Source: an uncultured Gammaproteobacteria bacterium
GTDB taxonomy: Bacteria > Pseudomonadota > Gammaproteobacteria > JAURND01
NCBI GenBank assembly: GCA_963714975.1
Contig: CAVQQD010000002.1
Coordinates: 448,001 to 512,000, forward strand
Direction of reading: 5' to 3'
Length of the DNA: 64,000 nt
The notes under the pieces are model-generated. The model saw nothing but the letters and a program-made list of their open reading frames with translations, had not been told where the DNA came from and searched no databases. This document shows, one piece after another, positions 27,011 through 57,482 of the stretch; position 1 is the stretch's first letter; each line of letters starts with the position of its first letter. The position numbers and the translations under genes were made by a program.

Positions 27011-28276
27011 GTGCAAGACAAACCATTATTCCGTGAAGCTGCTTTAAAGCATTTCTCTTCTCCAGAACAGCTAGATCAACTGATTCAAGTAGTTACTCCT
27101 AGGGCTTGGATTGTGGCAGGGACCCTCTACGCTCTTTTATTCATCATCATTCTCTGGTCCATTATTGGCACCATCCCAACCCGCGGTGAAGGGAAGGGAA
27201 TTTTATTGGCTGGCAATGGTGACATTTATGGCGCTGTGGTTCCCCAGGGACCTAGCCGCGTGAGTAATGTTCTGGTAAAACCTGGGGACAAAGTAGTTAA
27301 AGGCCAAATAGTGGCTACTATGTCTCGACCTGATTTAACCGATCAAATCAAAGTCAGCCAAAATTACGTTGCTGAACTACAAAATAAATATAATCAGTTG
27401 CTGACATTGTCGCGTGGTGCTGTTGCCACTCGGGAGCAGCAAGTTGCTATGCAGCAACAAGCACTGCAGCGCTCTTTAACCGATAGTCAGTCAAAACTGG
27501 ATAACATCAGTGAATTATTATCCATTAAGCAAGGAGCATTTAAAAAAGGCATTGAAACCAGACAAAGCGTTGATCAAACGACCCAGGATTATTATAACGC
27601 TAAAAATATCCTCGAAGGATTTAGAAATCAATTAATTCAATTACATGTAGAAGAACGTAGTTTCATTGATCAATGGAATCAAAGATTGCGAGACCTTGAT
27701 TTAAAGATTGTTGATGAAAAAGTTAAGTTGGCCAACTTGCAAAAAGCATTAATTCTTTCCTCCGATGTTGCCAGTCCTGTTGCCGGTATAGTCACTGGCG
27801 TTCAAGCGACTTTAGGGAGCATTCTGAATACGGGTGATTCTGTCGTGAGTGTTGCTAACGAAGGTCAAGGCTTAGATGCTCTGGTTTATCTTCCCCCACA
27901 AATAGGTAAACGCATTAAGCCTGGGATGAAAGCTTTAGTTGCACCGACTACAGTCGAAAAAGCGGAATATGGCAGTATTTTTGGTCATGTAGTGCGGGTG
28001 GCGGCATTTCCATCAAGTCCCCAAGCAATAGAATCAGTTTTGCAAAATCCTGATTTAGTAAAAGCATTTACCAAAGAAGAATCTCCCATTGAGGTGCGTA
28101 TTCATTTAGAAAAAGATCCCGCTACTTATAGTGGATTAAAATGGTCATCTTCCCGAGGGCCTCAACAAAAAATTACGATGGGTACTTTAGCAACTGCCAT
28201 GGTAACGATACGTGAGCAGGCTCCGATCACTTTGGTGATCCCTGCCTTTAGAAAATTTACTGGAATGGAATATTAA
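27011..28276 (+). CDS. NHLM/NHLP bacteriocin system secretion protein (HlyD-type membrane fusion protein)
   Basis: LFREAALKHFSSPEQLDQLIQV, single TM, coiled coil, EYGSIFG, SGLKWSSSRGP, APITLVIP. Confidence 0.92.
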   Translation: MQDKPLFREAALKHFSSPEQLDQLIQVVTPRAWIVAGTLYALLFIIILWSIIGTIPTRGEGKGILLAGNGDIYGAVVPQGPSRVSNVLVKPGDKVVKGQIVATMSRPDLTDQIKVSQNYVAELQNKYNQLLTLSRGAVATREQQVAMQQQALQRSLTDSQSKLDNISELLSIKQGAFKKGIETRQSVDQTTQDYYNAKNILEGFRNQLIQLHVEERSFIDQWNQRLRDLDLKIVDEKVKLANLQKALILSSDVASPVAGIVTGVQATLGSILNTGDSVVSVANEGQGLDALVYLPPQIGKRIKPGMKALVAPTTVEKAEYGSIFGHVVRVAAFPSSPQAIESVLQNPDLVKAFTKEESPIEVRIHLEKDPATYSGLKWSSSRGPQQKITMGTLATAMVTIREQAPITLVIPAFRKFTGMEY

Positions 28277-28344
28277 AATCCCCCCTACACGTCGTCCCGC
28301 GGCTTGTGCGCGGGATGACGTAAGTAGGGGGGGATTTTAGAGGG

Positions 28345-30576
28345 ATGGAATGTATGGAAAAGTGGTATCGAAGTTTAAAAGCTAAATGGTTGGCTTTAAT
28401 CACGCGTTTTAATAACCAGAAAACGTATGTAAAAACTCCTACCATTTTGCAAATGGAAGCAGCAGAATGTGGTGCTGCAGCACTGGGTATTATACTAGCG
28501 TTTTATGGACGTTATGTCCCTTTAGAAGAATTACGTACTGCTTGTGGTGTGTCACGTGATGGCAGTAAAGCGACGAATATGCTCAAAGCAGCGCGCCGTT
28601 ACGGGTTAAATGCTCAAGGAGCTAAAGTTGAGCCTGAATCTTTTGCCGAACTAAAATTACCGGTTATCGTGTTTTGGGAATTTAATCATTTTGTCGTAGT
28701 GGAAGGTTTTGATCGCCAATGGATTTATCTGAACGATCCTGCTACTGGCCCTCGGACTGTCACCCATGCTGATTTTAATGAATCGTTTACTGGGATTGTC
28801 TTATTATTCGAGCCTTCTGAGCAATTTGAACCCGGTGGGCAGAAATCTAATTTTGTGGAGAGTTTGGTACAACGCCTTAAAGGATTAAAGCATGATTTAG
28901 CTTTTGTCGTGCTAGCCAGTTTAGTCGCTGTGGCGCCTAGCATTGCTATTCCAGGACTTACCAAAATCTTTATTGACCAAATACTCATTCAACATCTGTC
29001 TGGATGGTTGCTGCCGTTGTTATGGGGTCTGCTTATTACTGGGGTTTTTCGTGCACTGGTTTCCTATTTGGAACAAATGTATTTGCTCCGGTTGCAATTA
29101 AAAATGCTGTTGACTTCTTCTGCTCGGTTTATTTGGCATGTGTTGCGGTTACCTTTTGGATTTTTTAGTCAACGTTTTGCTGGAGATATTCAATCGCGTG
29201 TTGAGTCTAATGATCGGCTCTCAGAATGGTTATCTGGGGAATTATCCGCAAGCATGGTCAGCATGTTTAGCATGGTCCTATTTGCGGTGGTGATGTTCCT
29301 TTTTGACTGGGTACTCACGCTAGTTGCCATCGTAATTGCTTCAACCAATGCTTGGTTATTTCTCACTATTTCTCGTGGTATCGAGAACGCAAGTCGGCGC
29401 TTACAACAGGAATTCGGTAAATTAAATGGAATTGAGATGAATGGCTTACAAGCGATTGAAACCATCAAAGCTAGTGGCATAGAAGATGATTTCTTTGAGC
29501 GCTGGTCAGGTTATCATGCTAAGACATTAAATAGCCAACAAAAAATTCACTTATATAGTCGTATCCTGCTCGTCATTCCGCAATTACTCAATGGCTTCAT
29601 GGCTATTATAATCTTGGGTTTAGGTGGCTGGCGGATTATTCAAGGGCATCTCAGTATTGGCGGACTAGTGGCTTTCCAAAGTTTATTGGCTAGTTTCAAT
29701 GCGCCGCTAATGACTTTGATTGGCGCTGGCAATAAATTGCAACAAATTAAAGCTGATATAGCTCGTTTGGATGATGTCCAAAAACATCCAGAAGATTCAC
29801 GTCTTACGATTGAAGAAGCACAAGCTCATCAAGAGCCTTTAAAGGGGCAATTAGAACTTAGCAATATTAATTTCGGTTATTCTCCCTTGGACCCTCCTTT
29901 TATCGAAAACATCAATTTGAATTTGCAGCCTGGAAAGCGCATTGCTATCGTGGGAGCCTCTGGCAGCGGAAAATCTACTTTAGCGAAACTTATTTGTGGC
30001 TTGTATTCTCCTTGGTCCGGTGAAATTTCCTGGGATAATGTTCCGATGACAGCTATTTCTGCGGCAACACTGAGCCGATCTTTGGCATTTGTCGATCAGG
30101 AGGTTTTTTTATTTGAGGGCACCATTCAACAAAATCTTACTTTGTGGAAAAAAGGAGTTTCTTTTAGCATTCTGGAAAGTGCGGTTCATGATAGCTTATT
30201 AGAATCAGTGGTGCTAAATCGCCCGAAAGGGTTGTTCAGCGAAGTCATTACTGCGGGTGCTAATTTTAGTGGTGGACAGCGCCAACAATTGGAAATTGCT
30301 CGAGCTTTAGTGCAAGAACCCGCCATTTTAGTTTTGGATGAAGCCACTTCAGCTCTAGATGCTACTACCGAGCAAGGCATTATGGATAATCTAAAGAAAC
30401 GTAATTGTAGTATGCTGTTAATTGCTCATCGCTTAAGTACCATTCGTGATTGTGATGAAATTATTGTGCTAGAGCAAGGAAGAGTCATTGAACGCGGTAC
30501 CCATGACCAGTTGTTTGGTTTACAGAGTGCCTATCATCATTTAGTCCAAACCGAAGGTGAGATAATTCATGCCTAA
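28345..30576 (+). CDS. NHLM bacteriocin system ABC transporter, C39 peptidase/ATP-binding subunit
   Basis: LQMEAAECGAA (catalytic Cys), FNHFVV (His), LNDPA (Asp); TM domain; GASGSGKS, FSGGQRQ, LDEATSALD. Confidence 0.95.
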   Translation: MECMEKWYRSLKAKWLALITRFNNQKTYVKTPTILQMEAAECGAAALGIILAFYGRYVPLEELRTACGVSRDGSKATNMLKAARRYGLNAQGAKVEPESFAELKLPVIVFWEFNHFVVVEGFDRQWIYLNDPATGPRTVTHADFNESFTGIVLLFEPSEQFEPGGQKSNFVESLVQRLKGLKHDLAFVVLASLVAVAPSIAIPGLTKIFIDQILIQHLSGWLLPLLWGLLITGVFRALVSYLEQMYLLRLQLKMLLTSSARFIWHVLRLPFGFFSQRFAGDIQSRVESNDRLSEWLSGELSASMVSMFSMVLFAVVMFLFDWVLTLVAIVIASTNAWLFLTISRGIENASRRLQQEFGKLNGIEMNGLQAIETIKASGIEDDFFERWSGYHAKTLNSQQKIHLYSRILLVIPQLLNGFMAIIILGLGGWRIIQGHLSIGGLVAFQSLLASFNAPLMTLIGAGNKLQQIKADIARLDDVQKHPEDSRLTIEEAQAHQEPLKGQLELSNINFGYSPLDPPFIENINLNLQPGKRIAIVGASGSGKSTLAKLICGLYSPWSGEISWDNVPMTAISAATLSRSLAFVDQEVFLFEGTIQQNLTLWKKGVSFSILESAVHDSLLESVVLNRPKGLFSEVITAGANFSGGQRQQLEIARALVQEPAILVLDEATSALDATTEQGIMDNLKKRNCSMLLIAHRLSTIRDCDEIIVLEQGRVIERGTHDQLFGLQSAYHHLVQTEGEIIHA

Positions 30577-32725
30577 GAGAAATGAAGACTCCATTGTCAA
30601 CGAAGCCGTGATGCATTTGGCTTCTGTGTTTAGCGAAGAAAATTTTAATGAACCTAGCAGTGAGCAAACAGATGCGCTGTGGATTGCGTGCGAATATATT
30701 TGTCGTGATCTAGCGATGGCTATTCAAAAACCTGCGCGAATTCCTGAACAAGCAAATTATCATAGTTTATTGATGGAAATTGCTCGCGCTTCTTCCTTTC
30801 GAGTTCGCCGCGTAGCGCTAAAAGGGCAGTGGTGGCGTTTTGATAATGGTCCCTTGTTAGTATTTGATGCCAATACTCAATCTCCCCAGGCATTGGTTTT
30901 AGATAAAAAAGGCCAGTACCAATTAATTGATCCGATCACTGGTGACAGACGTTTGGTGGATGAAAAAGTAGCACATGAATTAGCTGGCTTGGGTTATACC
31001 TTTTATAAAAGTTTGGCGAATGCCAAGTTAACCTGGTGGGGATTGCTACGTTTTGCATTCCAAGGACGGACTCGTGATGTTTGGCGAACTTTAGCTTTGC
31101 AAGCGGGTGTGGGTTTGTTCGCACTTTTTATTCCGATTGCGACGGGCATTATTTTAGACATAGCCGTACCCAATGCTAACCTTTCTATCTTAGGTCAATG
31201 GGTAATAGGATTACTGGTTTTCACCCTCGTGGCAGCAATTTTTAATGCCAGCCAAGTTTTGTCATTATTGCGTCTGCGTTTTAAGATGAATGCTTATACC
31301 CAAGGGGCTATTTGGGATCGTTTGTTGCGATTACCGGTAGGTTTTTTTCGTACCTTTACCCCAGGGGATCTTGCTGTAAGAGCCTCGGGTGTTGATACCA
31401 TTCAACAAGATTTGACTGATGCTGCGCTGCAAACCTTACTAAGCGGCGTGTTTTCTATCTTCACTTTTGGGCTGATGATTTATTATTCGTCTTCTTTAGC
31501 GTTGGTTGCATTGGTGTTGTTAGCTTTGTTTGTCGCTGCAATCATTCTGGAAGCTCAAATTGAATTAAAATTTCAGCGTCCGGTAGCAAAATTGGGTGGG
31601 ATGTTAGCTGATTTGATGCTGCAATTTCTCACGAATATCAGTAAATTGCGGGTTTGTCATAGTGAAACCCGGGCCTTTGCAATTTGGGCAAAACAGTTCT
31701 CCAGGAAAAATCGGCTTTTTCTCGGTGCCTCATTGTGGGCCATTCGTTTTTCCATTTTTCGGACCTTGCTGGCAACCTTAGGCATAATTGGCTTATACGG
31801 TTTGGTGGGCAGTAAATTCTCATCTTTGAGTTTTGGTAGTTTTATTGCATTTAATGCGGCTTTTGGGCAATTTTTTGTGTCTGTATTAGGATTGGCGGGA
31901 GTGTTTGCAACGATTATCCGTATCATTCCGCTCTATGAACGTATTCAACCTATTCTGCATGCGCAACCCGAGCGTGATATGGAGGGCATTGATCCAGGAA
32001 TTCTCTCAGGACAAATTCATTTGGAAAAAATAGGTTTTCGTTATCATTCTGAGGATGCTTGGGTTTTGGAAGATATTAATATGCATATTCCTCCCGGTAA
32101 AATGGTTGCTTTTGTAGGTCCGACAGGTAGCGGAAAATCAACTTTATTTCGCTTGTTGTTGGGTTTTGAAACCCCTGTGACTGGAACTGTAGCTTATGAT
32201 TATCAGGATCTCAGTAAGCTTAATTTGCGCATCCTTCGAGAACAGTTAGGGGTAGTGTTGCAAAATGGAGTGTTGATGTATGGAACCATTTTTGAAAATA
32301 TTGTCGGTTCATTTCCTCTGACGCAAGAGCAAGCCTGGGAAGCTGCTGCGATGGCTGGTTTAGCTAAAGATATCGAGGCAATGCCCATGGGGATGCAAAC
32401 GTTAATTGCGGAAGGGGGGACCACCCTGTCGGGTGGACAGCGCCAACGTTTAATGATTGCTCGTGCTTTAGTACATAAACCACGCGTCTTATTTTTAGAT
32501 GAAGCGACTTCTTCTTTGGATAATCCAACCCAGAAAGAAATAATGCAACAGTTAGAGCAATTGAAAATAACGCGAGTTATTGCGGCACATCGCCTGAGTA
32601 CCGTCATTAATGCGGATTGTATTTATGTAATACAAAATGGCAAGGTCTTGCAAAGTGGTACTTATGAAAGTCTCATTGCTGAAAAAGGCTTGTTTTTAGA
32701 ATTGGCAAGTAGGCAATTAATTTAA
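30569..32725 (+). CDS. NHLM bacteriocin system ABC transporter, second ATP-binding subunit (no active peptidase)
   Basis: RRVALKGQWWRFDNGPLL, WDRLLRLP, GPTGSGKS, LSGGQRQRL, DEATSSLD. Confidence 0.93.
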   Translation: MPKRNEDSIVNEAVMHLASVFSEENFNEPSSEQTDALWIACEYICRDLAMAIQKPARIPEQANYHSLLMEIARASSFRVRRVALKGQWWRFDNGPLLVFDANTQSPQALVLDKKGQYQLIDPITGDRRLVDEKVAHELAGLGYTFYKSLANAKLTWWGLLRFAFQGRTRDVWRTLALQAGVGLFALFIPIATGIILDIAVPNANLSILGQWVIGLLVFTLVAAIFNASQVLSLLRLRFKMNAYTQGAIWDRLLRLPVGFFRTFTPGDLAVRASGVDTIQQDLTDAALQTLLSGVFSIFTFGLMIYYSSSLALVALVLLALFVAAIILEAQIELKFQRPVAKLGGMLADLMLQFLTNISKLRVCHSETRAFAIWAKQFSRKNRLFLGASLWAIRFSIFRTLLATLGIIGLYGLVGSKFSSLSFGSFIAFNAAFGQFFVSVLGLAGVFATIIRIIPLYERIQPILHAQPERDMEGIDPGILSGQIHLEKIGFRYHSEDAWVLEDINMHIPPGKMVAFVGPTGSGKSTLFRLLLGFETPVTGTVAYDYQDLSKLNLRILREQLGVVLQNGVLMYGTIFENIVGSFPLTQEQAWEAAAMAGLAKDIEAMPMGMQTLIAEGGTTLSGGQRQRLMIARALVHKPRVLFLDEATSSLDNPTQKEIMQQLEQLKITRVIAAHRLSTVINADCIYVIQNGKVLQSGTYESLIAEKGLFLELASRQLI

Positions 32726-33618: not shown

Positions 33619-33733
33619 GTTGATTACTCCAGCCAAAAACTTTAGCAAGATTTTCTTTTAAAAGCAATTGCTTGCACGCTATAATTGTCCTGTACGCGTT
33701 CCTTCTTCTCATAAACCTTCGGCGGGATATAAA

Positions 33734-34366
33734 ATGCATTTTAAAAATCGAACTGAAGCAGGGCGATTATTGGCTCAGGCCTTAAAGCAATATTGTGATC
33801 AAGACGTAGTAGTTTATGCTATCCCTCGTGGTGGGGTAGTCGTTGGGATAGAAATAGCTCATTTTTTGCGAGCACCACTGGATTTAGTGATCACTCGAAA
33901 AATTGGCCATCCTTTCCAAGAAGAATATGCGATAGCGGCTGTTGCTGAAGATGGACATATGTTAGGATCAAAAGTACAATTACAGGCCCTTGATTCAGTT
34001 TGGCTAAACCAAGAGATAGATCGGCAACGTCAGGAAGCGCGCAGAAGAAGAGAAAAATACTTGGGCAATAGGCCTAAGATTGATGTCCAGGGGAAAACCG
34101 CCATTTTGGTCGATGATGGTATTGCGACCGGGATTACGCTGCTTTTGGCTATACAAGAGCTTAAGCACTCTAAGTGCAAGCGAATAGTCGTTGCAGTTCC
34201 TGTGGCGCCTAAATCCACAGCAGTGCAAATTAAAGAAGAAGTAGATGAGTTTATTGCTTTAGATATTCCCGAAGTTTATTTGGGAGCAGTGGGGGCTTAT
34301 TATGGTAATTTTGCCCAAGTCGAAGATGAAGAAGTGATAGCAATTTTAAATCAACAAAAGGAGTAA
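33734..34366 (+). CDS. Phosphoribosyltransferase family protein
   Basis: FKNRTEAGRLLA, IPRGGV, RKIGHP, ILVDDGIATG (PRPP loop), AVGAYY. Confidence 0.88.
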   Translation: MHFKNRTEAGRLLAQALKQYCDQDVVVYAIPRGGVVVGIEIAHFLRAPLDLVITRKIGHPFQEEYAIAAVAEDGHMLGSKVQLQALDSVWLNQEIDRQRQEARRRREKYLGNRPKIDVQGKTAILVDDGIATGITLLLAIQELKHSKCKRIVVAVPVAPKSTAVQIKEEVDEFIALDIPEVYLGAVGAYYGNFAQVEDEEVIAILNQQKE

Positions 34367-34399: not shown

Positions 34400-37300
34400 G
34401 TGAATGGATTTGTGAGTTTATTGGATCTGATAAGGCAGCGTGCAGCTGAATTTCCTAATCAAATTGCTTATCAATTTGTAACGAGTCATGGTACCTATGA
34501 TTCGCTTACCTATGCTCAATTAGATCACAGAGCCACGGCTGTTGCCGCCGTGTTACGGCAGAGCTCTTGTCAGGGTGAAAGAGCTGTGGTGTTATTACCC
34601 CCTGGCCTAGATTATTTGGTTGCTTTTTTTGGCTGCCTTTATGCGGGCGTCATCGCAGTGCCGGTCTATCCCCCTAGTCGAAATCGACATTCACAAAGAT
34701 TATTTAATATTATTGATGATGCTAAAGTAAATTTTTTTATTACCCATCAAGTTTTTGCTAATCAATATCCAGCAGCTCCCGCGGGGATAAAGATCATTTG
34801 TGTTGATTTAATACCAACGCAAGCTGAGCAAGCAATTCCATCGCTTACTCCAGGTCCTGATGAAATTGCTTTTTTACAATACACTTCGGGTTCGACCAAT
34901 AGCCCTAAGGGGGTTATGGTTAGCTTTGGCAATATCGCTGCTAACTTAGAGGTTCTCAAAAATAATTTTGGTGAACAATGTCATGTGACTTGCTCTTGGC
35001 TACCTCCTTACCATGATATGGGATTAGTCGCGGGAATTATTCTCCCTTTATATCTTAAATCGCGGACTATTTTGATGTCCCCCTCGTATTTTTTGCAGTC
35101 ACCTGTGCGCTGGTTGGAAATTATTTCCAAGGAAAAAGTAGTTCTAAGTGGGGCGCCTAATTTTGCCTATGATTTATGTGTCAAAAAAATTCAGGCTGAG
35201 CAATTACGAAATCTCGATCTAAGTTGCTGGAAATATGCAGTCAATGGTGCGGAAGTCGTTCGACAAGCTACAATACAACATTTTATTGATACCTTCGCGG
35301 TGGCAGGTTTTGCTCCGGAAAGAATCTATCCTTGCTATGGTTTAGCTGAAGCAACTTTGATGCTGACAGGTAAAAAAGCTGCTGCAATCACCCATTCATT
35401 ACCATTACTGAAGACAGAATTAGAACGTGGGCAAGTGGTTATAGCTACTGAAGAAAATGCAGAAAATGTGGTGAATTTTGTTTCTTGCGGCGTAGCTCAA
35501 AAAGATCATGATATTTGCATAGTCGATCCGCACACGCATAAACCTCTTCCAGAGCGAAGCTGGGGAGAAATATGGGCCTGTGGTCCCAGCATTGCTAAAG
35601 GTTATTTTAATAAGCCAGAAATGACAGAAACAATTTTTCATGCTGAATTAACTGAGCCTGTTGCCGGGAAGGAATCAAATTCCTATATGCGTACCGGTGA
35701 TTTAGGTTTTATTTATCAGAATGAGCTTTATGTTGGTGGGCGTATCAAGGACCTGATTATTATTAAAGGATTAAACTATTATCCAGAAGATATTGAATTA
35801 ACTGCCACTGCTAGTCATCCTGCATTTGTACCACATGGGGCCGCTGCTTTTTCTGTAGTGGTTGAAAATGAGGAGCATTTAGTAGTTTTGCAGGAAGTTG
35901 CCCGGGATCAATTACATAAAATTGATGTTGCAGCGGCCTTGCGTGCTATCGAAGTGGCTTTGTTAAATGAGTATGGGCTGCAAGCTTACAGTATTGTGCT
36001 CATTAAACCCCATTCTCTTGCAAAAACTTCCAGTGGGAAAATTCAGCGGTGGGTATGTCGAAGTGAATTTTTAACTAATTCACTACGTGTCCTTGCTACC
36101 TCTCACGCTGCTAACGAAGTTAATCACTCCAACTGCGAAACTTATGAGGCAACGCGAGCTTGGTTAGTCGCTTGGTTTGCTCAGCAATTGCGTGTCTCTG
36201 AGAGTGAAATTAGTGGCAGGGATTTGCATGAATTAGAATTTAGCTCTTTAACAGCCGCTGAATTAGCTAGTGAATTGTCTAATCGATTTGGTAAACGCTT
36301 TGAAATTACTAGCCTACTAGAGCAACCTTCTTTAGAAGATTTAAGCCGATTTATCACGAATCATGGAGTAGCGAAAAATGTTCAGCAAAAGAGCTCAGTA
36401 GAGATCGCAGAAAAATCTTTAGTAAAACCTTTAGACCCAGATTTATTGAGTGCAGTAAAAGATATTTACTTCAAGGTAAATGCTGGAATTTCAGCTAACA
36501 ATACTATCATTGATGGTTCGCAGTATATTAATTTTTCAGGTTACAACTATTTGGGAATGTCCGGCGATGCTCAAGTGACTGCCGCTGTGGTGGCTGCCAT
36601 TCAAGAATTTGGCACCTCAGTTTCTGCGAGTCGTTTAGTCTCTGGAGAAAAACCTTTACATCATCAATTAGAAAATGCCATTTCAAAATTAATCGGGACA
36701 GATGAGACTGCGGTTTTATCTTCGGGATATGCCACTAATTTAGCCGTGATTACCCATTTATTTGGTCCGGGAGATTTGGTTATTTACGATGCCTTAGCTC
36801 ATAACAGTATTTTGCAAGGAGCGCAATTTTCAGGCGCTACTTGCATGGCTTTCCCTCATAATGATATAGGAGCATTAGAAGCAATATTGGAGAAGAAACG
36901 CGATCAATATAGGCGGGTATTAATCGTATCCGAAGGGGTATTTAGTATGGATGGCGATATCTGTGAGGCAACAGCATTAATTGCCATTAAAAAAAGATTT
37001 CAATGCTTTCTCATGTTAGATGAGGCCCATTCCATGGGGGTTATTGGCAATACTGGTTGTGGAATCCGTGAATATTACAATCTTAATCCTAAGGATGTGG
37101 ACATATGGATGGGAACTCTGAGTAAATCATTTGCAAGTTGTGGAGGCTATATTTCAGGTAGTTCTGAATTAATTGAAAACTTTAAATATAGTTCAGCTGG
37201 GTTTGTCTATTCAGCTGGTATTTCTCCTGCTAATACTGCGGCAGCTTTTGCTGCAGTTGAGCTCATGAGACAACAACCGGAGCGGATTAATAATTTACAA

Positions 37301-37579
37301 CAACGTCATTCCTTATTATTGTCTTTATTAAGGAAGGCCAGTATTCCAACCGGCAAGAGTAGTGACACTCCGATAATTCCGCTGATGGCAGGATCAACAG
37401 AGGGGGCAATTAAATTGAGTTCTTATTTAAAGACCTGTTACATCAATGCCTTGCCGATTTTTTATCCAGCTGTTGAAAAAACTTTGGCTCGGGTCAGACT
37501 ATTTGTGAACTGTTTACATACTGAAGAACAAGTGCATTATACAGCTGATGCTATTATTGCGGGCTATCAAACATTATGA
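34400..37579 (+). CDS. Fatty acyl-AMP ligase - ACP - alpha-oxoamine synthase (SPT/AONS-type) fusion
   Basis: FAAL: QYTSGSTNSPKG, WLPPYHDMGL, YGLAE, RTGDLG, KTSSGKIQR; ACP-like EFSSLTAAEL; PLP domain YNYLG, HNSI, VFSMDGD, DEAHS, GTLSKSF. Confidence 0.9.
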   Translation: MNGFVSLLDLIRQRAAEFPNQIAYQFVTSHGTYDSLTYAQLDHRATAVAAVLRQSSCQGERAVVLLPPGLDYLVAFFGCLYAGVIAVPVYPPSRNRHSQRLFNIIDDAKVNFFITHQVFANQYPAAPAGIKIICVDLIPTQAEQAIPSLTPGPDEIAFLQYTSGSTNSPKGVMVSFGNIAANLEVLKNNFGEQCHVTCSWLPPYHDMGLVAGIILPLYLKSRTILMSPSYFLQSPVRWLEIISKEKVVLSGAPNFAYDLCVKKIQAEQLRNLDLSCWKYAVNGAEVVRQATIQHFIDTFAVAGFAPERIYPCYGLAEATLMLTGKKAAAITHSLPLLKTELERGQVVIATEENAENVVNFVSCGVAQKDHDICIVDPHTHKPLPERSWGEIWACGPSIAKGYFNKPEMTETIFHAELTEPVAGKESNSYMRTGDLGFIYQNELYVGGRIKDLIIIKGLNYYPEDIELTATASHPAFVPHGAAAFSVVVENEEHLVVLQEVARDQLHKIDVAAALRAIEVALLNEYGLQAYSIVLIKPHSLAKTSSGKIQRWVCRSEFLTNSLRVLATSHAANEVNHSNCETYEATRAWLVAWFAQQLRVSESEISGRDLHELEFSSLTAAELASELSNRFGKRFEITSLLEQPSLEDLSRFITNHGVAKNVQQKSSVEIAEKSLVKPLDPDLLSAVKDIYFKVNAGISANNTIIDGSQYINFSGYNYLGMSGDAQVTAAVVAAIQEFGTSVSASRLVSGEKPLHHQLENAISKLIGTDETAVLSSGYATNLAVITHLFGPGDLVIYDALAHNSILQGAQFSGATCMAFPHNDIGALEAILEKKRDQYRRVLIVSEGVFSMDGDICEATALIAIKKRFQCFLMLDEAHSMGVIGNTGCGIREYYNLNPKDVDIWMGTLSKSFASCGGYISGSSELIENFKYSSAGFVYSAGISPANTAAAFAAVELMRQQPERINNLQQRHSLLLSLLRKASIPTGKSSDTPIIPLMAGSTEGAIKLSSYLKTCYINALPIFYPAVEKTLARVRLFVNCLHTEEQVHYTADAIIAGYQTL

Positions 37580-38232
37580 ATAAAAATCTCTATTCAAACC
37601 AAGTAGTCAACAATGATGGCTGCAGTCCTAGATTATTTGCTAATCCTATTTTAGAGCGTTTAAGTTGTACCTTACCAAGAACCCTATTTTTTGCTTACGC
37701 GCCGCTGGTAGTTTTTTTTCTGTACCAATCTACTAGGCAATGTGCTTATGGGAAAACTGTATTAATTTTTTGTCTAGGTATCTTTCTTTGGAGCTTTGTT
37801 GAGTATTTAATTCATCGTTTTGTTTTCCATTATGTGCCTACACAATCAAAGTGGGAAAAAATAAACCCGCTTTTTTATGGCAATTTTATTCACAACATTC
37901 ATCACGCTTACCCGAAAGATCCCTTGCGGTTGGTGACCCCGTTGGTAGTTACTTTACCCTTAGCAGTAATTTTTTATGGGTTATTTCATATTATATTCGC
38001 TAGCTATGCTCCAGGATTATTTGCTGGTTTTTTGCTAGGGTACCTTGGCTATGATTTGTTGCACGCGTTTACTCATGTTGCTCCTATGCGCAGCCGCTTA
38101 GGGAGATTTTTGAAGCGTTACCATATGCAGCACCATTACTTAGTAGAATACCAATCATTTGGGGTCAGTAGTCCTTTATGGGACTATATTTTTAATACTG
38201 TTCAATCAAAACCTAATAAGAACAGTAAATAA
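37576..38232 (+). CDS. Fatty acid hydroxylase / sterol desaturase family (FA2H/Scs7-like)
   Basis: His boxes EYLIHRFVFH, HNIHH, YDLLHAFTH, HMQHH; FGVSSPLWD. Confidence 0.88.
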   Translation: MNKNLYSNQVVNNDGCSPRLFANPILERLSCTLPRTLFFAYAPLVVFFLYQSTRQCAYGKTVLIFCLGIFLWSFVEYLIHRFVFHYVPTQSKWEKINPLFYGNFIHNIHHAYPKDPLRLVTPLVVTLPLAVIFYGLFHIIFASYAPGLFAGFLLGYLGYDLLHAFTHVAPMRSRLGRFLKRYHMQHHYLVEYQSFGVSSPLWDYIFNTVQSKPNKNSK

Positions 38233-38247
38233 TTGAGGTAAACTGCG

Positions 38248-39375
38248 ATGTCCATCCAAATCGTTCCAGTTAGTTCAAGACAACATTGGAAGCATTTTCT
38301 ACAATTACCAAACGTGTTACATCAACATGATCCCAATTGGGTTCCCCCCTTACAAATTTCAGTCAAAAATATTTTAAATCACAAAAATCCTTTTTTTAAA
38401 CGGGCTAAAGTGCAATATTGGTTGGCTTATCAGCATGAAAAACCTGTAGCGCGTATAGCTGGTATTATTAATGAGGTACATAACGAATTTCACGAAGAAA
38501 AAGTGGCCTTTTGGGGCTATTTTGAGTCTATAGATAATACTCAAGTAGCAGCGCAACTGTTTGTTGCATTGTCACATTGGGTAAGTGGATATGGAATAAC
38601 CACTTTGCGTGGACCAGTCAATCTTTCTACTAATTACGAATGTGGTATGCAAATATCTGCTTTTGACACTAAGCCTTTTGTGATGACGCAGCAGAATCCC
38701 GCCTATTATCCTCACTTGATCGAGTCTTTAGGTTTTGTTAAAGTCAAAGATTTAGAAGCCTGGAAAATGGATCATAAAACAGCAAAATTGGATCCGCGAT
38801 TGTTGGAACGGACAAAAAAATTTGCACAAATGAATGCTATTACAATTCGAACTATTCGCTTAGATCAATTTGATCAGGAAATTTCCGCAATTTATCATTG
38901 TTACAACGATGCTTGGGAACGAAATTGGGGATTTGTCCCCATGCCAAAGGATGAATTTTTATTTCTCGCCAAAGAAATGAAGAGCATTCTTATGCCAGAA
39001 TTTTGTTTTATTATAGAGGTCGCTGGGGAAGTTGCTGGTTTTTCTATCTGGTTGCCCGATATTAATCAGATAGTCATTAAAATTCGGGATGGAAAGTTAT
39101 TTCCTACAGGGTTGTTCAAGCTATTCTGGTATTCGAAAGTACGCAAGGTAATCAATCAAGGAAGAATTATTGCTTTAGGAGTTCGAAAAAAATTTCGACA
39201 TTTAAACTTAGGTTCATTGTTATATAATAAATATTTTGAAACGCTCCCGGCGGCAGGTTACCCAATCAGTGAATGCTCTTGGGTATTAGAGGATAATGAG
39301 GCAATGCGGACTGCGTTGCAGTTTATGAATGGGGAAGTGTATAAGCATTATCGGCTATATGAAAAAGCAATATAA
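38248..39375 (+). CDS. GNAT-fold N-acyltransferase (bacterial ceramide synthase-like)
   Basis: DPNWVPPL, RGPVNLSTNYECG, NPAYY, WERNWGFVP, LPDIN, SWVLEDN; context after SPT-like gene. Confidence 0.75.
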   Translation: MSIQIVPVSSRQHWKHFLQLPNVLHQHDPNWVPPLQISVKNILNHKNPFFKRAKVQYWLAYQHEKPVARIAGIINEVHNEFHEEKVAFWGYFESIDNTQVAAQLFVALSHWVSGYGITTLRGPVNLSTNYECGMQISAFDTKPFVMTQQNPAYYPHLIESLGFVKVKDLEAWKMDHKTAKLDPRLLERTKKFAQMNAITIRTIRLDQFDQEISAIYHCYNDAWERNWGFVPMPKDEFLFLAKEMKSILMPEFCFIIEVAGEVAGFSIWLPDINQIVIKIRDGKLFPTGLFKLFWYSKVRKVINQGRIIALGVRKKFRHLNLGSLLYNKYFETLPAAGYPISECSWVLEDNEAMRTALQFMNGEVYKHYRLYEKAI

Positions 39376-39378
39376 CTT

Positions 39379-40371
39379 ATGAAAGTTTTATTAACAGGTG
39401 CTTCTGGGTTTTTAGGTTCTCACACGGCTGAATGTTTAGTGCAGCATGGTTATCAAGTGCGTTGCTTGGTTCGTCCCAGTGCTAGCCTTAATTTTATCAA
39501 GGAATTTACCTCTGCACTTGAGTTAATTGAAGGGTCTTTAGAAAATACTTCGTCCTTGCAACAGGCGGTGGCTGGAGTAGATGCTATTATTCATTGCGCA
39601 GGTTTGATAAAGGCTAGGACTTCCACGGATTTTTTTAACACGAATGCTAGTGGTACCTTATCTCTACTGGAAGCTGCAAGAAAAACGACACCTTGTTTAC
39701 GGCGTTTTATTTTAGTATCTAGTTTAGCAGCCTGCGGCGCTGCATTAAATAATTTTCAGCCTACTTCAGGTGAGATACTACCTCAACCCGTGAGTAATTA
39801 TGGCCGCAGTAAACTGCAGGCTGAAGTGAACGCAATAAAATATGCTGAAGCGTTTCCGGTCACAATTATTCGTCCCTCTATTGTCTATGGTCCCCGCGAT
39901 TTAAGTATGTTAACGCTTTTTAAAGCTTTTAATCGGGGGATTATTCCGCTGATTGAGGGTGGCGCAGGCGCAGTGAGTACCATTTATGTCAGGGATGCTG
40001 CACAAGCTTTGGTTAAAGCCGTAGCGGCAGAGGTCCCTAGCGGTAACGCTTATTTCTTAGAAGATGGCAGGACTATGACTTGGCGGGAAAGGTATTCTAT
40101 CTGGTCCCAAGCTATTTTAACTGGAAAAAATATTAAAATTCCCGTACCGAATCTATTCCTGGGTCTAACAGCCTGGGCTAACGAATGTTATGGAGCATTG
40201 ACCAAAAAAACAGTATTTTTAACTCGGGATAAATTACGCGAACTGCAGCAAACTTATTGGGTATGCAGCAGTGCTGCAGCTTCACAAGACTTATCATGGA
40301 AGGCTGCCGTTTCTTGGGTAGAGGGAAGCAAGTTAACTTATCAGTGGTATAAAAAAGAGGATTGGTTGTGA
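39379..40371 (+). CDS. NAD-dependent epimerase/dehydratase (extended SDR), candidate ketosphinganine/oxidised-ceramide reductase
   Basis: TGASGFLG, HCAG, YGRSK, RPSIVYGP. Confidence 0.85.
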   Translation: MKVLLTGASGFLGSHTAECLVQHGYQVRCLVRPSASLNFIKEFTSALELIEGSLENTSSLQQAVAGVDAIIHCAGLIKARTSTDFFNTNASGTLSLLEAARKTTPCLRRFILVSSLAACGAALNNFQPTSGEILPQPVSNYGRSKLQAEVNAIKYAEAFPVTIIRPSIVYGPRDLSMLTLFKAFNRGIIPLIEGGAGAVSTIYVRDAAQALVKAVAAEVPSGNAYFLEDGRTMTWRERYSIWSQAILTGKNIKIPVPNLFLGLTAWANECYGALTKKTVFLTRDKLRELQQTYWVCSSAAASQDLSWKAAVSWVEGSKLTYQWYKKEDWL

Positions 40372-40733
40372 AAAAATTTCTTGAGAAATTATATTGGGCA
40401 ACTGTTTTTTCTTTGCGGGGATTGCGTGCTGCTTGGCATTTTCAATGGGCATTTCGGTTGGAAGTTTTGGCCTTTATCTGTGGCATACCTTTGGCTATTT
40501 ATTTTGGACACGAGACCTGGCAAAAATTTATTTTAATATTTTCTTTGCTTTGGATATTAGTAGCAGAACTGCTTAATAGCGCGATTGAAACGATAGTGGA
40601 TCGCATTGGAACAGATCATCATGAATTATCAGGCCGAGCAAAAAATCTGGGGTCAGCTGCGGTATTCATTTTGGTATTAAATGCTTTGCTCACTTGGGGG
40701 ATTATTTTATTGGGAAACCCCCCTTCTCTCTAA
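40362..40733 (+). CDS. dgkA: Diacylglycerol kinase (DgkA family)
   Basis: AFRLE, ELLNSAIETIVD, LSGRAKNLGSAAV. Confidence 0.9.
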   Translation: MVVKKFLEKLYWATVFSLRGLRAAWHFQWAFRLEVLAFICGIPLAIYFGHETWQKFILIFSLLWILVAELLNSAIETIVDRIGTDHHELSGRAKNLGSAAVFILVLNALLTWGIILLGNPPSL

Positions 40734-40744
40734 CCCTCTCCCAC

Positions 40745-41602
40745 CTACCCTCGCTGGCGTACGGGTGGGGGAGAGGGGATTTCTAAAGCATAGCTGGGGA
40801 TAAATTTGGGCTTAAAGTAGGCTAACTGATAAGTTACCAAGGAGATTAGCAGTAGGGCAATGCAGGAGTAAGCAATCAGGACGTTGTTTCTAGGATACAT
40901 ATTAGCAAAACGTTGCAAATAACCTTGTATTTTCACGGTCTTAAATAATTGATAGGCACATTCGGAAATGATAATGCCGACGATTCCATCCAGCAAAATA
41001 TGAATTTTCAGAGTGAAGGCGCCAATAGACATGCCAATAAACCAAAGTAAATAGATATAACTTAGTAATTTAAATCGTTCAAAGCTATAGCGCAGGATTA
41101 TCCAGCCACTACCGATGTGATACGAGGGAAAAGAATTCCAAGGAGAAGTGATAGACATAATAAATCGAACATTGGCTGTTAGCCAGTCTGTGTCCTGTGT
41201 TTGCCAAAATGTTATAAATCCAGGATCTTCCCATAGTGGAACTTGGGTAGGAAATAGGAAATACAGGGCATAATGAATGGATAGTACTAATAAACAGGTG
41301 AAAAAGATTCGATAAAATAGCAGAAAATTGAGCCTTGATTGAACAATAATGATCCAGGACATCAGAAAAGGAACAATTAAGGCACTGGAATAGAACAATG
41401 ACCAAGAAATTGTAAAATGGATGTTTTTATCGATAGGTGTAGTAATTAACTCGATATAATTTACTTGGCGATAACCGACCAGATCGCCAATAAATCCATA
41501 TTGCGCCCAATAGCAAAGAGTGATAAGAAATAAAACCGCTATTTCTAGAAATCGTAATAATGGGGTTGAATGAGTATTTACGTGTATTTCTTGCTGCAAC
41601 AT
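40745..41602 (-). CDS. PAP2/Aur1 (IPC synthase)-like membrane phosphotransferase
   Basis: Multi-TM; YFLFPT, NSFPSYH and KIHILLD motifs. Confidence 0.65.
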   Translation of the reverse strand: MLQQEIHVNTHSTPLLRFLEIAVLFLITLCYWAQYGFIGDLVGYRQVNYIELITTPIDKNIHFTISWSLFYSSALIVPFLMSWIIIVQSRLNFLLFYRIFFTCLLVLSIHYALYFLFPTQVPLWEDPGFITFWQTQDTDWLTANVRFIMSITSPWNSFPSYHIGSGWIILRYSFERFKLLSYIYLLWFIGMSIGAFTLKIHILLDGIVGIIISECAYQLFKTVKIQGYLQRFANMYPRNNVLIAYSCIALLLISLVTYQLAYFKPKFIPSYALEIPSPPPVRQRG

Positions 41603-41704: not shown

Positions 41705-42748
41705 ATGCTGCCCACACGTGGTTATGCTGCTGTAAGTGCGGATGCGCCTTTACAAGCTTTTAATTTTGAAAGACGTGAGCTTGGCCCTCACGATGTTTTT
41801 ATTAAGATACTTTATTGTGGCGTTTGCCATTCTGATATCCATCAAGTCCGTAATGAATGGGGGCACACGACCTATCCGGTGGTGCCAGGCCATGAAATTG
41901 TGGGCAAAGTGGCTGGTATAGGCAGTGCGGTTACGAAATTTAAAATAGAAGATATTGTTGGCGTAGGTTGCTTTGTCGATTCTTGTCGGCAATGTCTTAA
42001 CTGCCAAGAAGGTGAAGAGCAATTCTGTGAAAACGGTGTTTCCTATACCTATTGTGGGACAGAGCAGGATAAGAAAACTTCAACTCAAGGGGGTTATTCT
42101 GCACAAATTGTCGTCGATGAGAATTATGTCTTAAAAATTTCTGCAAAATTATCCTTGGCTAATGCTGCCCCGCTGTTGTGTGCAGGCATTACCACCTATG
42201 CACCTTTGAAACGGTTTAAAATAGGGGCTGGTCACAAAGTAGGCATTATTGGGTTAGGTGGTTTAGGCCATATGGCGGTGAAATTTGCTGCTGCTTTTGG
42301 GGCAGAAGTGACTGTTTTTAGTACTTCTGCCGCTAAAGAGGCGGATGCACGCCGTTTTGGAGCCAAGCATTTTGTGCTTACCAACAAACCCGAAACCCTG
42401 CAACCTTTGCTAGGACAGTTTGATTTTATTCTGGATACGGTTTCGGCAAAGCATGACATCAATAGGTATTTAAGTCTGCTTAAACGAGGGGGTACTTTAG
42501 TACTGGTAGGTGTCCCAGAACATCCGTTTGAAGTTCAGCCATTTGCATTACTTGCGAACCGTAGAAGCTTTGCTGGCTCTAATATTGGTGGCATTCGAGA
42601 GACTCAAGAGATGCTAGATTATTGTGCTAAACATAATATTAGTTCAGAAGTCGAAGTAATTCCCATCCACGAAATTGAAGCAGCCTTCGCGCGTACGATT
42701 AAGGGCGATGTGCGTTTTCGATTCGTTATTGATATGGCGAGTTTATAG
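41705..42748 (+). CDS. Zn-dependent NAD(P) alcohol dehydrogenase (cinnamyl-ADH type)
   Basis: CGVCHSD, VPGHEIVG, CRQCLNC, LLCAGITTY, GLGGLG, RFVID. Confidence 0.93.
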   Translation: MLPTRGYAAVSADAPLQAFNFERRELGPHDVFIKILYCGVCHSDIHQVRNEWGHTTYPVVPGHEIVGKVAGIGSAVTKFKIEDIVGVGCFVDSCRQCLNCQEGEEQFCENGVSYTYCGTEQDKKTSTQGGYSAQIVVDENYVLKISAKLSLANAAPLLCAGITTYAPLKRFKIGAGHKVGIIGLGGLGHMAVKFAAAFGAEVTVFSTSAAKEADARRFGAKHFVLTNKPETLQPLLGQFDFILDTVSAKHDINRYLSLLKRGGTLVLVGVPEHPFEVQPFALLANRRSFAGSNIGGIRETQEMLDYCAKHNISSEVEVIPIHEIEAAFARTIKGDVRFRFVIDMASL

Positions 42749-43597: not shown

Positions 43598-44803
43598 CTA
43601 TGAGCTCAGTTTTTTCCTTCTGGGAAAATCTGGCATGATCCGTTTCATGAATTCTCCAAATAATGGCACTGTAAAGGCAGTGTCGCCATGTTTTGGGCTA
43701 TAAATCATCCCTTTTTTTATTAAATTATTCCGCAGAGGGGCCACGCTTTGTACATCGAGGCCGAGTTCTTCGGCGATTTCTCCAGATCGTTGAGCGGCAG
43801 CGCCTAATTCAGCAAGCGCTCTGAGATATTCTTTTTCTCTTGGGGTTAAACGGTCAAACCGAACGCGAAAAAAATTTTGGTCGAGCTTTTGAATGGCAGT
43901 AGTTGTGGCTTGTTTTGCCACATCAATGTCTATGGGCGATTTAGTAGCAAGATTCCATGCTGAGTAACCCCATTCTTGAAGAAAATAAGGATAGCCTTCA
44001 GTGACCCGAAGGATTTCATCTAAGGCTTTTTCTGTGAAACTTACTCCTTCTCGCTTAACGGGGGCTTGTAAAGCTACCTTTGCATCTTCCTTTTTTAAAG
44101 GCCCTAATTCTGGAAAGTCAAAAAGTCGCTCGGCATAGGATTTAGCGAGCCCTGTTTTTCTCACAAGTTGGGGTAGTCCAGCCCCAATGAGGACTACTGG
44201 CAGGGATTTTTGTGATAGTTTGTGTTGAGCCATAATAAGTGAACTTAATTCTTCTTCATTTAAATATTGGAGCTCATCAATAATAATAGCGATGGCGGTA
44301 TTACGCGTTTTTGCTGCTTCTCCAATAGCAATAAAAACCTGAGCGAGATCAGCTTCTAAGTCGCCACTGTCAGCGATTCCTTTTTCAGGGTCGATATCCA
44401 AACCTAAATCGATATTTTGGATTTTAATGTTAAGATTAATTCTCGATATAAAGCTTTTTAAAATCCGCAGGGCTCTTTTTACTTTACTATTTACTTCCTT
44501 GTCATCAAGCACGAAAAGTATTCGACGTAGCTCAGGGAGTAATAATTCAGGAAGTAATTTTTTTTCATGAGCTTCTATCATAGCCATTTGATATCCTTCC
44601 AATTCTGCTAATTTAGAAATTTCATGTAAAAGAACAGTCTTACCTGTTCCCCGTAATCCAATAAGTAGAATACTTTTTTCAGCTCGACCACGCTTGACCC
44701 GTGCCAAGGTCATCATAGCCTGTTTTAGAATATCGCTTCTGCCCGCGAGTTCTGGGGGAGGGGTGCCAGCGCCAGGAGAAAAAGGGTTATGTAAGGGATT
44801 CAT
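43598..44803 (-). CDS. AAA ATPase with C-terminal winged helix
   Basis: NPFSPGAG, GLRGTGKT, IIDELQ, SYAERLF, GYPYFLQ, FTVPLF. Confidence 0.85.
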   Translation of the reverse strand: MNPLHNPFSPGAGTPPPELAGRSDILKQAMMTLARVKRGRAEKSILLIGLRGTGKTVLLHEISKLAELEGYQMAMIEAHEKKLLPELLLPELRRILFVLDDKEVNSKVKRALRILKSFISRINLNIKIQNIDLGLDIDPEKGIADSGDLEADLAQVFIAIGEAAKTRNTAIAIIIDELQYLNEEELSSLIMAQHKLSQKSLPVVLIGAGLPQLVRKTGLAKSYAERLFDFPELGPLKKEDAKVALQAPVKREGVSFTEKALDEILRVTEGYPYFLQEWGYSAWNLATKSPIDIDVAKQATTTAIQKLDQNFFRVRFDRLTPREKEYLRALAELGAAAQRSGEIAEELGLDVQSVAPLRNNLIKKGMIYSPKHGDTAFTVPLFGEFMKRIMPDFPRRKKLSS

Positions 44804-56603: not shown

Positions 56604-57482
56604 ATGAGTGTAATTAATTGTGACGAAATTGATGATTGGAATGTAGAGCGTCCTGCATCACTGAAAACCTACCTGATTAATTCGCTTGAATCAGGCGCAT
56701 TGCTTTTTTTGCCTAGACTTGCTTTTTTATTAAAGGATGAAGAACGAAAATTTTTGTCGCCGCAGTTTGTGCAGAAAAAAGTAAAAAATATTAGCTTTAA
56801 TCCTGCTTTGCAGTCGCTCAAGGGAGTTGTTGGTTCTGCTACAGAATGCCAACAAATCCAAGCAATGTTGGCACGTTTTTCGCAGCAATCGCAACTCATT
56901 ATCCAGATTTTATTTCCCCATTATGCCAATGCGTTACAAATGGGGCGTACTAGTTTTCGTCCTTGTGAAGTGAGCAAGCGACGACTTTCCTATCGTAAAG
57001 ATGACCGCCTCTTACATGTCGATGCATTTCCTAGTTCTCCCAATCACGGCCAACGATTATTGCGCGTATTTAGTAATGTAAATCCGCATGGCCAGGATCG
57101 AGTGTGGCGTATAGGCGAGCCGTTTGCATCCGTTGCACAACGCTTTCTGCCCTTGATTCCCAGGCCTTGGCCGGGAAGTAGTCAATTACTACGTTGGCTG
57201 AAGATTGCTAAAACTTTAAGAACTGAATATGATCATCTTATGTTGCAAATACATGATCGAATGAAGGCAGATGCCTTTTATCAACAAAATGTTGATCAAA
57301 TCCAATTACGCTTACCTCCTGGAACTAGCTGGATTGTACAAACTGACCATGTTTCTCATGCGGCGATGAGTGGCCAATATATGTTTGAACAGACATTTTA
57401 TTTGCCTGCCCAAGCAATGTTGGATCCAGGGAAATCACCGTTGAAAATTTTAGAAGGGATGTTGAGCAGGAATTTGGTTTAG
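56604..57482 (+). CDS. Kdo hydroxylase family (KdoO-like dioxygenase)
   Basis: KNISF, TSFRP, RKDDRLLHVDAFPS, RLLRVFSNVNP, YDHLMLQIHDRMK, HAAMSGQY. Confidence 0.82.
   Translation: MSVINCDEIDDWNVERPASLKTYLINSLESGALLFLPRLAFLLKDEERKFLSPQFVQKKVKNISFNPALQSLKGVVGSATECQQIQAMLARFSQQSQLIIQILFPHYANALQMGRTSFRPCEVSKRRLSYRKDDRLLHVDAFPSSPNHGQRLLRVFSNVNPHGQDRVWRIGEPFASVAQRFLPLIPRPWPGSSQLLRWLKIAKTLRTEYDHLMLQIHDRMKADAFYQQNVDQIQLRLPPGTSWIVQTDHVSHAAMSGQYMFEQTFYLPAQAMLDPGKSPLKILEGMLSRNLV

Follow-up and report, generated by a model that had tools for sequence, protein, structure and literature searches.

Sequence analysis of a six-gene locus predicted to direct ceramide synthesis through a carrier-fused alpha-oxoamine synthase in an uncultured gammaproteobacterium

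Six genes at positions 34400-41602 of a 64,000-nucleotide stretch of DNA from an uncultured gammaproteobacterium (contig CAVQQD010000002.1; the whole stretch is referred to below as the window) probably form a pathway that makes an N-acyl long-chain base, i.e. a ceramide, from serine. We hold with less confidence that the acyl chain is 2-hydroxylated and that a protein of the PAP2_3 family transfers a head group, with DgkA recycling the diacylglycerol. The evidence from the locus consists of gene content, homologies, conserved synteny and phylogenetic placement, all of which were observed directly. The genes encode, in order, a fusion of a fatty acyl-AMP ligase (FAAL), an acyl carrier protein (ACP) domain and an alpha-oxoamine synthase (AOS), a hydroxylase, an acyltransferase of the GNAT type, a short-chain dehydrogenase/reductase (SDR), DgkA and, convergently, the PAP2_3 protein. 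An earlier note on this DNA had described a tightly packed and partly overlapping set, and the list of open reading frames (ORFs) and a Pfam scan agreed with it on the six genes, their domains and their exact coordinates. Along the plus strand, neighbouring genes overlap by 4 nt at the first junction, stand 15 and 3 nt apart at the next two and overlap by 10 nt at the last, and the convergent PAP2_3 gene ends 11 nt past dgkA. The broader claim of that note, that the locus makes a hydroxylated, possibly phosphorylated ceramide-type lipid, gained in silico support from homologies to Escherichia coli BL21(DE3) and from synteny.

The GNAT gene (38248-39375, + strand) encodes 375 amino acids with a weak Pfam match to Acetyltransf_1 (25.5 bits). 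In a search of the BL21(DE3) genome (NC_012971.2) this protein had a single match, yghO (E 4.6e-64), and in pairwise comparison it was 34% identical to BL21 YghO over 382 amino acids, i.e. over the full length (E 1e-71). The SDR gene, which directly follows (39379-40371, + strand; 330 amino acids, Epimerase-type extended SDR in Pfam, 3e-34), encodes a protein 31% identical over 313 amino acids to ECD_02852, a CerR-type epimerase (E 4e-43), and the GxxGxxG and YxxxK motifs are present in its translation. Its Rossmann motif begins at residue 7, too early for a classical leader; CerR is periplasmic (PMC11087976). The BL21 genes lie together at 2989282-2994885 of the chromosome, where yghO is divergent from genes for a fatty acyl-AMP ligase, an NAD-dependent epimerase/dehydratase, an ACP and spt, and these are followed by lptG and lptF paralogues. 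The four genes divergent from yghO are equated in PMC9386255 with Caulobacter aasR (CC_1165), epi/cerR (CC_1164), acpR (CC_1163) and spt (CC_1162), and the legend to Fig. 9 of the same paper lists yghO (ECD_02850) with Caulobacter CC_1154 (aca/cerS), the bacterial ceramide synthase. The five Caulobacter genes are reported to be required for dihydroceramide (PMC9386255; PMC11324152), and Spt, bCerS and CerR are described as frequently clustered (PMC11334938).

Proteins of the window match four of the five proteins of the BL21 cluster, namely through the GNAT, the SDR, the FAAL domain and the AOS domain. These comparisons support assignment of the GNAT to the bacterial ceramide synthase (YghO/CC_1154) family, with the predicted activity of a long-chain-base N-acyltransferase. 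The earlier note had named a GNAT-fold ceramide synthase, an SDR-type reductase and an enzyme of the serine palmitoyltransferase (SPT) type; the BL21 cluster holds full-length homologues of these and of the acyl-activating part. The GNAT has a great many homologues (E <= 0.001 for 7240 of 8000 scored candidates), those in Legionella species being 46-51% identical to the window protein. No NCBIfam model matched the GNAT, the hydroxylase, DgkA or the PAP2_3 protein, and an Atlas look-up of a Legionella homologue of the GNAT gave generic GNAT clusters only.

The fusion gene (34400-37579, + strand) opens the set and encodes 1059 amino acids, in which Pfam found AMP-binding (6e-60), a DIP2-like AMP C-domain, PP-binding (2e-10) and Aminotran_1_2 (6e-45). 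The fatty acyl-AMP ligase occupies residues ~1-570, the carrier ~588-652 and the AOS ~690-1059. The FAAL domain is 32% identical over 562 amino acids to BL21 AasR (ECD_02851, annotated in RefSeq as a fatty acyl-AMP ligase; E 1e-76) and the AOS domain is 31% identical over 376 amino acids to BL21 Spt (E 2e-53), with the motifs GTLSKS, DALAHNS and DEAHS aligned with those of Spt that hold the pyridoxal phosphate (PLP) lysine, the histidine and the Asp-x-x-His. Against the Protein Data Bank (PDB), the AOS domain as a single sequence matched best to Arabidopsis LCB2a (215 bits) and the SPT of Sphingobacterium multivorum (204 bits), followed by human SPTLC2 (190 bits), Thermus BioF/Kbl (186 bits), Kbl (177 bits) and the SPT of S. 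paucimobilis (154 bits); lower down were BioF (133-153 bits), a cysteate acyltransferase structure (142 bits) and CqsA (92 bits). An autoinducer synthase of the CqsA/LqsA type was considered and rejected, at 92 bits against 204-215 for the SPTs. In NCBIfam the best matches of the fusion protein were to FAAL models and, for its C-terminus, to bioF, all below their cut-offs. BL21 Spt and the SPT of a Candidatus Sphingobacterium locus (L064; 705 bits against a cut-off of 640) pass their own SPT models, and for SPT-like genes of Bacteriovorax and Bryobacterales the top-scoring model is one for SPT.

AOS domains were placed in two trees, the first a rapid build with 66 rows and the second a more careful build with 61 (LG+G4); matches with fewer than 250 aligned positions, including the pieces from locus L001, were dropped from both, and for the second 21 of 29 rows of the Acidobacteriota clade were removed and 16 fused proteins were added. 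Carrier-linked AOS domains formed one clade in both trees (100/100). Its sister clade (100/98) unites every standalone SPT or SPT-like gene, among them BL21 Spt and the SPT of Sphingobacterium. Kbl and BioF of E. coli and the BioF-like paralogue of the genome itself fell outside both clades (100/97), although these two E. coli enzymes and one paralogue make a thin outgroup that includes neither HemA nor CqsA. The PLP-domain phylogeny called for by the earlier note thus did not give the outcome named there as a refutation: on this small set of outgroups the domain does not cluster with BioF or Kbl. Neither does it lie inside the canonical SPT clade.

Conservation of the neighbourhood was assessed in the 80 best genome loci with the GNAT, counting a partner as present within 10 kb unless stated otherwise. 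Of these, 65 had an AOS beside the GNAT, 53 had the SDR and nine had a homologue of the hydroxylase; many of the loci in which the AOS was missing are short contigs. The syntenic link between the GNAT and SPT-like genes extends across phyla. All six genes are colinear in two genomes of the same family as the window genome (G002 and G006). In a third (G003) the whole set is present with the fusion gene in four ORF pieces, and a second copy is fragmented throughout (L104, G003:C1:69500-84516; L102, on G003:C2); the fragmented copies could represent either decay through real frameshifts or sequencing error in a metagenome-assembled genome (MAG). Recurrence of the set in these genomes shows that the genes are not neighbours by chance. 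Fusion and GNAT occur together in these three genomes and also in G191, L002, Legionella bozemanae (L003) and a Gemmatimonadaceae MAG (L061), while G025 has the unfused, BL21-like layout instead. In L. bozemanae (L003, 6955-19277) the GNAT and fusion genes stand amid genes for a GT4 glycosyltransferase, a polysaccharide deacetylase, a sulfatase-family protein, a PAP2_3 protein, a CDP-alcohol phosphatidyltransferase and a classical SDR, an accessory set unlike that of the window which hints at glycosylated or otherwise decorated ceramides. In L064 the genes for SPT, GNAT and SDR follow directly in a row and precede a CDP-alcohol phosphatidyltransferase, and the AOS there is an orthologue of the S. 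multivorum SPT of known crystal structure (8GUH/3A2B), which it matches at 676 bits. Among the Acidobacteriota loci (L015-L067), the order SDR, PAP2_3, GNAT and SPT-like AOS recurs in Bryobacterales and Solibacteraceae.

The tri-domain fusion is itself widespread. FAAL-ACP-AOS proteins made up 4195 of 8000 scored candidates, with lengths of 582-1854 amino acids and extra domains in some; several Legionella species have the fusion at 63-66% identity in the AOS part, and Planctomycetes, cyanobacteria and Chloroflexota have it at 51-55%. An AOS of this type (E <= 1e-75) was found in 11 of 300 evenly sampled genomes of the class, four of them with fusions of more than 1000 amino acids, and only these four fusion carriers among the 11 also have the GNAT. 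The GNAT occurs in 20 of the same 300 genomes. The suggestion that sphingolipid synthesis is uncommon in Gammaproteobacteria holds only loosely: published work already describes genes for sphingolipids in members of the class, as well as the ceramides of Legionella gormanii (PMC9386255; PMC11324152; PMC9146996).

The sixth gene (40745-41602, - strand) encodes a protein of 285 amino acids that matches PAP2_3 at 39 bits (cut-off 27). It had been called PAP2/Aur1-like from its sequence, and the profile of its family points the same way with modest margins. As a single sequence the protein gave no PDB match at E <= 1; a profile built from 50 relatives placed yeast Aur1, the inositol phosphorylceramide (IPC) synthase, first (E 2.5e-6 and 4.5e-6), ahead of PgpB/YodM (0.006-0.016). 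The protein has only six close relatives in a set of 5.8 billion proteins, and a full HMMER search gave 161 representatives with E <= 0.001. Alignments of the family show little or no variation in the motifs P-S-x-H and H-x3-D, S160, H162, H201 and D205 being invariant in seven close relatives and H162 in 50. An AlphaFold (AF2) model reached a pLDDT of 93.5. A Foldseek search with this model gave no match at E <= 0.001, though Aur1 ranked first, and VIA-align gave Z scores of 13.2 for SMSr, 13.1 and 13.0 for Aur1 and 11.5 for PgpB and LpxE, with sequence identities to Aur1 and SMSr of 8-16%; the direction is consistent but the margin is small, and helical bundles often reach Z scores of this size. 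Of the 80 GNAT loci, 41 held an ORF matched by a profile of the family (37 within 3 kb and 37 on the GNAT strand); as a crude control with a large contrast, it matched two ORFs in the whole 2.56-Mb window genome. From these matches we propose that the PAP2_3 protein may be a head-group transferase that acts on ceramide. Yeast Aur1 and human SMSr, the ceramide phosphoethanolamine synthase, share the PAP2_3 family with it and are its best fold matches. We know of no characterised bacterial member of the Aur1/SMS family.

The hydroxylase gene (37576-38232, + strand), between the fusion and GNAT genes, encodes 218 amino acids in which Pfam found a hydroxylase domain alone (FA_hydroxylase, 4e-15, 56.8 bits) and no cytochrome b5 domain. 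Its sole significant PDB match was yeast Scs7 (4ZR0/4ZR1; E 4e-25, residues 18-209), and the histidine boxes HxxxxH, HxxHH and HxxHH are present in the translation, which upheld its earlier description as an FA2H/Scs7-type hydroxylase. Plant FA2H-type enzymes also do without cytochrome b5 (PMC10002949). Functional FA2H homologues are reported from myxobacteria, where the synthesis of 2-hydroxy fatty acids is linked to that of sphingolipids (Ring et al. 2009, as cited in PMC10002949); these 2-hydroxylases likewise have histidine boxes and no cytochrome b5 domain, a likeness drawn from their description and not from sequence. We propose that the window enzyme would act on ceramide, at C2 of the acyl chain or C4 of the base.

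The dgkA gene (40362-40733, + strand; 123 amino acids, DAGK_prokar 5e-30, 103.7 bits) encodes a standard enzyme of the E. coli type (E 3e-27 against E. coli DgkA structures; 3ZE5) and has been retained in the operon of G002, G006 and G003. Transfer by enzymes of the Aur1/SMS type frees diacylglycerol, and ceramide can also serve as a substrate of E. coli DgkA. Two readings of DgkA follow from this, which we regard as equally likely: it may recycle the diacylglycerol left by the Aur1-like transferase, or it may phosphorylate ceramide.

The proposed pathway can be set out as follows, with each catalytic step, the amino acid substrate, the head group and the site of hydroxylation predicted from sequence. 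The FAAL domain would adenylate a free fatty acid and load it onto its own phosphopantetheinyl carrier domain, from which the PLP-dependent AOS domain would condense the acyl group with L-serine to give 3-ketosphinganine. The GNAT would then N-acylate the base and the CerR-type SDR would reduce the 3-keto group, to yield dihydroceramide; the order of N-acylation and reduction is disputed, even for Caulobacter. A hydroxyl group would be added by the Scs7-like di-iron hydroxylase, and the PAP2_3 protein may move a phospho-head group from a glycerophospholipid to the 1-hydroxyl of ceramide with release of diacylglycerol. This diacylglycerol could be rephosphorylated by DgkA, which alternatively may make ceramide-1-phosphate directly. 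A phosphopantetheinyl transferase able to prime the carrier domain is encoded in the genome.

A number of results count against this scheme. The AOS domain has its top NCBIfam score with bioF (344.6 bits, cut-off 426; Kbl 274.6 bits) and lies below the cut-off of every SPT model (CFB 272.5 against 640, BetaP 247.3 against 500, AlphaP 189.5 against 670); it is ~31-35% identical to bona fide SPTs and outside their clade, and the carrier domain has no significant similarity to BL21 AcpR (BLASTP E 1.8). Seven of the 11 class genomes with this type of AOS have no GNAT, so the clade is not tied to ceramide synthesis alone. Because the PLP domain belongs to a sister clade and falls below all SPT cut-offs, we can only infer that serine is used. 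AOS enzymes of related clades use many amino acids. An alternative that takes up these points, and the presence of a cysteate acyltransferase among the PDB matches (142 bits), is that the same assembly line runs on alanine, glycine or cysteate and makes an N-acyl 1-deoxy or sulfonated long-chain amino alcohol. We think this quite unlikely, as the best PDB matches are SPTs (215 and 204 bits) and as the 1-hydroxyl, which only serine would supply, would be required by an Aur1/SMSr-like transferase or by a lipid kinase acting on the product. Precedent also favours serine. In genomes G108 and G227 an unfused AOS, 46-48% identical to that of the window, lies directly downstream of a monomodular polyketide synthase (PKS) of ~2500 amino acids (KS-AT-DH-(MT)-ER-KR-ACP). 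This is the layout of PfSgaAB, the likeness being one of gene arrangement; PfSgaB, from the closest characterised arrangement of PKS and AOS, is reported on biochemical evidence to be an SPT that takes L-serine almost exclusively (PMC12134224). Together with the gene context, the precedent of PfSgaB suggests L-serine as the substrate of the window AOS.

Another possibility is that the locus makes a secreted or signalling compound in small amounts and not a bulk membrane lipid. A free sphingoid base or an N-acyl amino ketone would be examples, with PKS-derived sphingolipids and alpha-hydroxyketone autoinducers as the models. The AOS clade has PKS-coupled members, the PKS products of Pseudomonas fluorescens are termed secondary metabolites (PMC12134224), and the window genome is rich in giant ORFs that resemble non-ribosomal peptide synthetases (NRPS) or PKS. 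Nonetheless, CqsA-type autoinducer synthases are distant from the AOS domain (92 bits), the flanks of the operon are housekeeping genes, and a GNAT, a CerR-type SDR, an Scs7-type hydroxylase and an Aur1-like transferase are enzymes of complex membrane sphingolipids; a signalling product is in our view highly improbable.

It could also be that the pathway consists of the fusion, the GNAT and the SDR only, with the hydroxylase, DgkA (in general diacylglycerol recycling) and the PAP2_3 protein (as a lipid phosphatase) as housekeeping bystanders. DgkA may simply be a housekeeping kinase, since it is the only copy in the genome, and it accompanies the GNAT in one of the 80 loci (phmmer). For the PAP2_3 protein, PAP2 phosphatases come close to Aur1 and SMSr in the fold comparison (Z 11.5 against 13). 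Against this stand the colinearity of the six genes in G002 and G006, the set in G003, junctions that overlap or span a few bases, the PAP2_3 genes within 3 kb of the GNAT in 37 of the 80 loci, which come from a number of phyla, and the hydroxylase homologues in nine. We consider it unlikely that these three genes are bystanders and prefer synthesis of a ceramide that is further modified by products of the same locus.

The nearest relatives of the system are the aasR, acpR, spt, cerR and bcerS genes of Caulobacter crescentus and E. coli BL21(DE3), which provide the same five functions; the GNAT, SDR, FAAL and AOS are homologous over nearly their full length. In these systems the acyl group is reported to reach the AOS through a dedicated carrier and not as a CoA ester (PMC9386255), and the same is proposed for the window. 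The functions of AasR, AcpR and Spt are, however, joined in one polypeptide in the window and spread over three proteins there, the AOS is of the sister clade and below the SPT cut-offs, and the carrier is not detectably AcpR-like. No lptF or lptG paralogues or head-group genes of the CpgABC type stand alongside; the Scs7-like hydroxylase, DgkA and PAP2_3 genes are found instead. PfSgaAB of P. fluorescens MYb115, as described in PMC12134224, also presents a carrier-tethered acyl chain to an AOS other than canonical Spt, but the window system would take its chain from a free fatty acid through the FAAL, where PfSgaAB uses a PKS, and has a ceramide synthase and a CerR-type reductase in addition. 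The Sphingobacterium SPT operon (3A2B, 8GUH) combines SPT, GNAT, SDR and a head-group gene, as seen in L064, whose GNAT is 41% identical to that of the window. Its SPT is standalone and CoA-dependent (PMC11324152), and its head-group gene is a CDP-alcohol phosphatidyltransferase where the window has PAP2_3. Another case is that of L. gormanii, for which ceramides, oxidised ceramides and hexosylceramides are reported with no canonical SPT found and the genes not identified (PMC9146996). Legionella species carry the fusion and the GNAT.

The kind of pathway is already known from Caulobacter and E. coli BL21 (PMC9386255; PMC11087976; PMC11324152), as are, from published accounts, non-canonical carrier-fed SPTs (PMC12134224) and sphingolipid genes in some gammaproteobacteria. 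What appears to be new is the tri-domain fusion in place of AasR, AcpR and Spt beside bCerS and CerR, the separate AOS clade and the recurrent Aur1/SMSr-like partner. A full-text search of a limited library of main articles returned no paper that joins a FAAL with an oxoamine synthase, and one on the enzymes of Legionella sphingolipid synthesis returned host-lipid papers only. The arrangement suggests that a carrier-fused AOS of another clade can replace Spt beside a known ceramide synthase and reductase. As screens for bacterial sphingolipid makers rely on canonical Spt, such producers would be missed; as thousands of FAAL-ACP-AOS proteins exist, they could, if the proposal is correct, form a large hidden set. 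The recurrence of a PAP2_3 partner in 41 of 80 loci likewise points to an uncharacterised bacterial head-group transferase. A more far-reaching idea, which we put forward tentatively and as less probable than not, is that Legionellales-type bacteria with Dot/Icm make their own eukaryote-like 2-hydroxylated phosphosphingolipids, by means of a tri-domain 'SPT', a head-group step of a bacterial member of the Aur1/sphingomyelin synthase family and DgkA to recycle diacylglycerol. If true, this would explain ceramides in Legionella that lack a recognisable SPT and would provide the first bacterial Aur1/SMS-type ceramide phosphotransferase.

The source genome is of 2.56 Mb in three contigs, with a G+C content of 0.43-0.45 and a completeness of 93.75%. 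The nearest named relatives of the operon proteins are from uncultured Gammaproteobacteria, a Coxiellaceae MAG and Legionella species (46-66% identity). There are three above-cut-off matches to DotI/IcmL of type IVB secretion, against none in 14 control genomes; matches of this family lie at G000:C3:380872-381402 and C2:884966-885973. With these identities and DotI/IcmL, the organism is therefore Legionellales-like, without being a named Legionella, and the suggestion that it is intracellular is backed by the three secretion matches. In a host-associated lineage with type IVB secretion, self-made ceramide-type lipids could perhaps affect the envelope and serve in host-lipid mimicry, which is speculation at this stage. 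The genome also contains many giant ORFs, the longest of 18.5 kb, with matches to the adenylation domain (NRPS/PKS-like), for example at C2:933724-952215, C2:235815-253991 and C2:14757-23861, and such a wealth of megasynthases is unusual for so small a host-associated genome.

Around the operon are ordinary chromosomal genes (purH, purD, secDF, plsY, tgt, queA, lnt, mutS, rpsA and a Kdo hydroxylase), and the G+C content of the locus is similar to that of its surroundings. A scan of the region for promoters and terminators found such sites overall no more often than expected from shuffled sequence; one near-consensus promoter-like site (11/12) lies at 41660-41633, beside the PAP2_3 gene. Two adjacent genes, an upstream phosphoribosyltransferase (33668-34366) and a divergent Ahr-like dehydrogenase (41705-42748), were left out of the system, having no match in the loci of relatives. 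Just upstream of the lipid operon, 27011-32725 (+) holds a weak HlyD-like match (27.9 bits, Pfam cut-off 30) followed by two ABC transporter genes; as the first of these has a C39 peptidase domain, this is an export set of the bacteriocin or RTX type, and no counterpart of it was found beside the operon in relatives. The Kdo hydroxylase gene (56604-57482, +; PF11004, 368 bits) indicates that the organism also makes a modified lipopolysaccharide core. At 43598-44803 (-) is an AAA_16/STAND-type ATPase with a weak C-terminal MarR-like match (21.4 bits, Pfam cut-off 24.6), and two long ORFs, at 6591-9539 (+; 982 amino acids) and 17561-19564 (+; 667 amino acids), matched no Pfam family at E <= 1e-5. 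Mobile-element genes in the window encode a DDE transposase (10019-11425, -), a PD-(D/E)XK transposase-family protein (12180-13145, +) and an IS605 OrfB/TnpB protein that is Cas12f-like (59781-60953, -).

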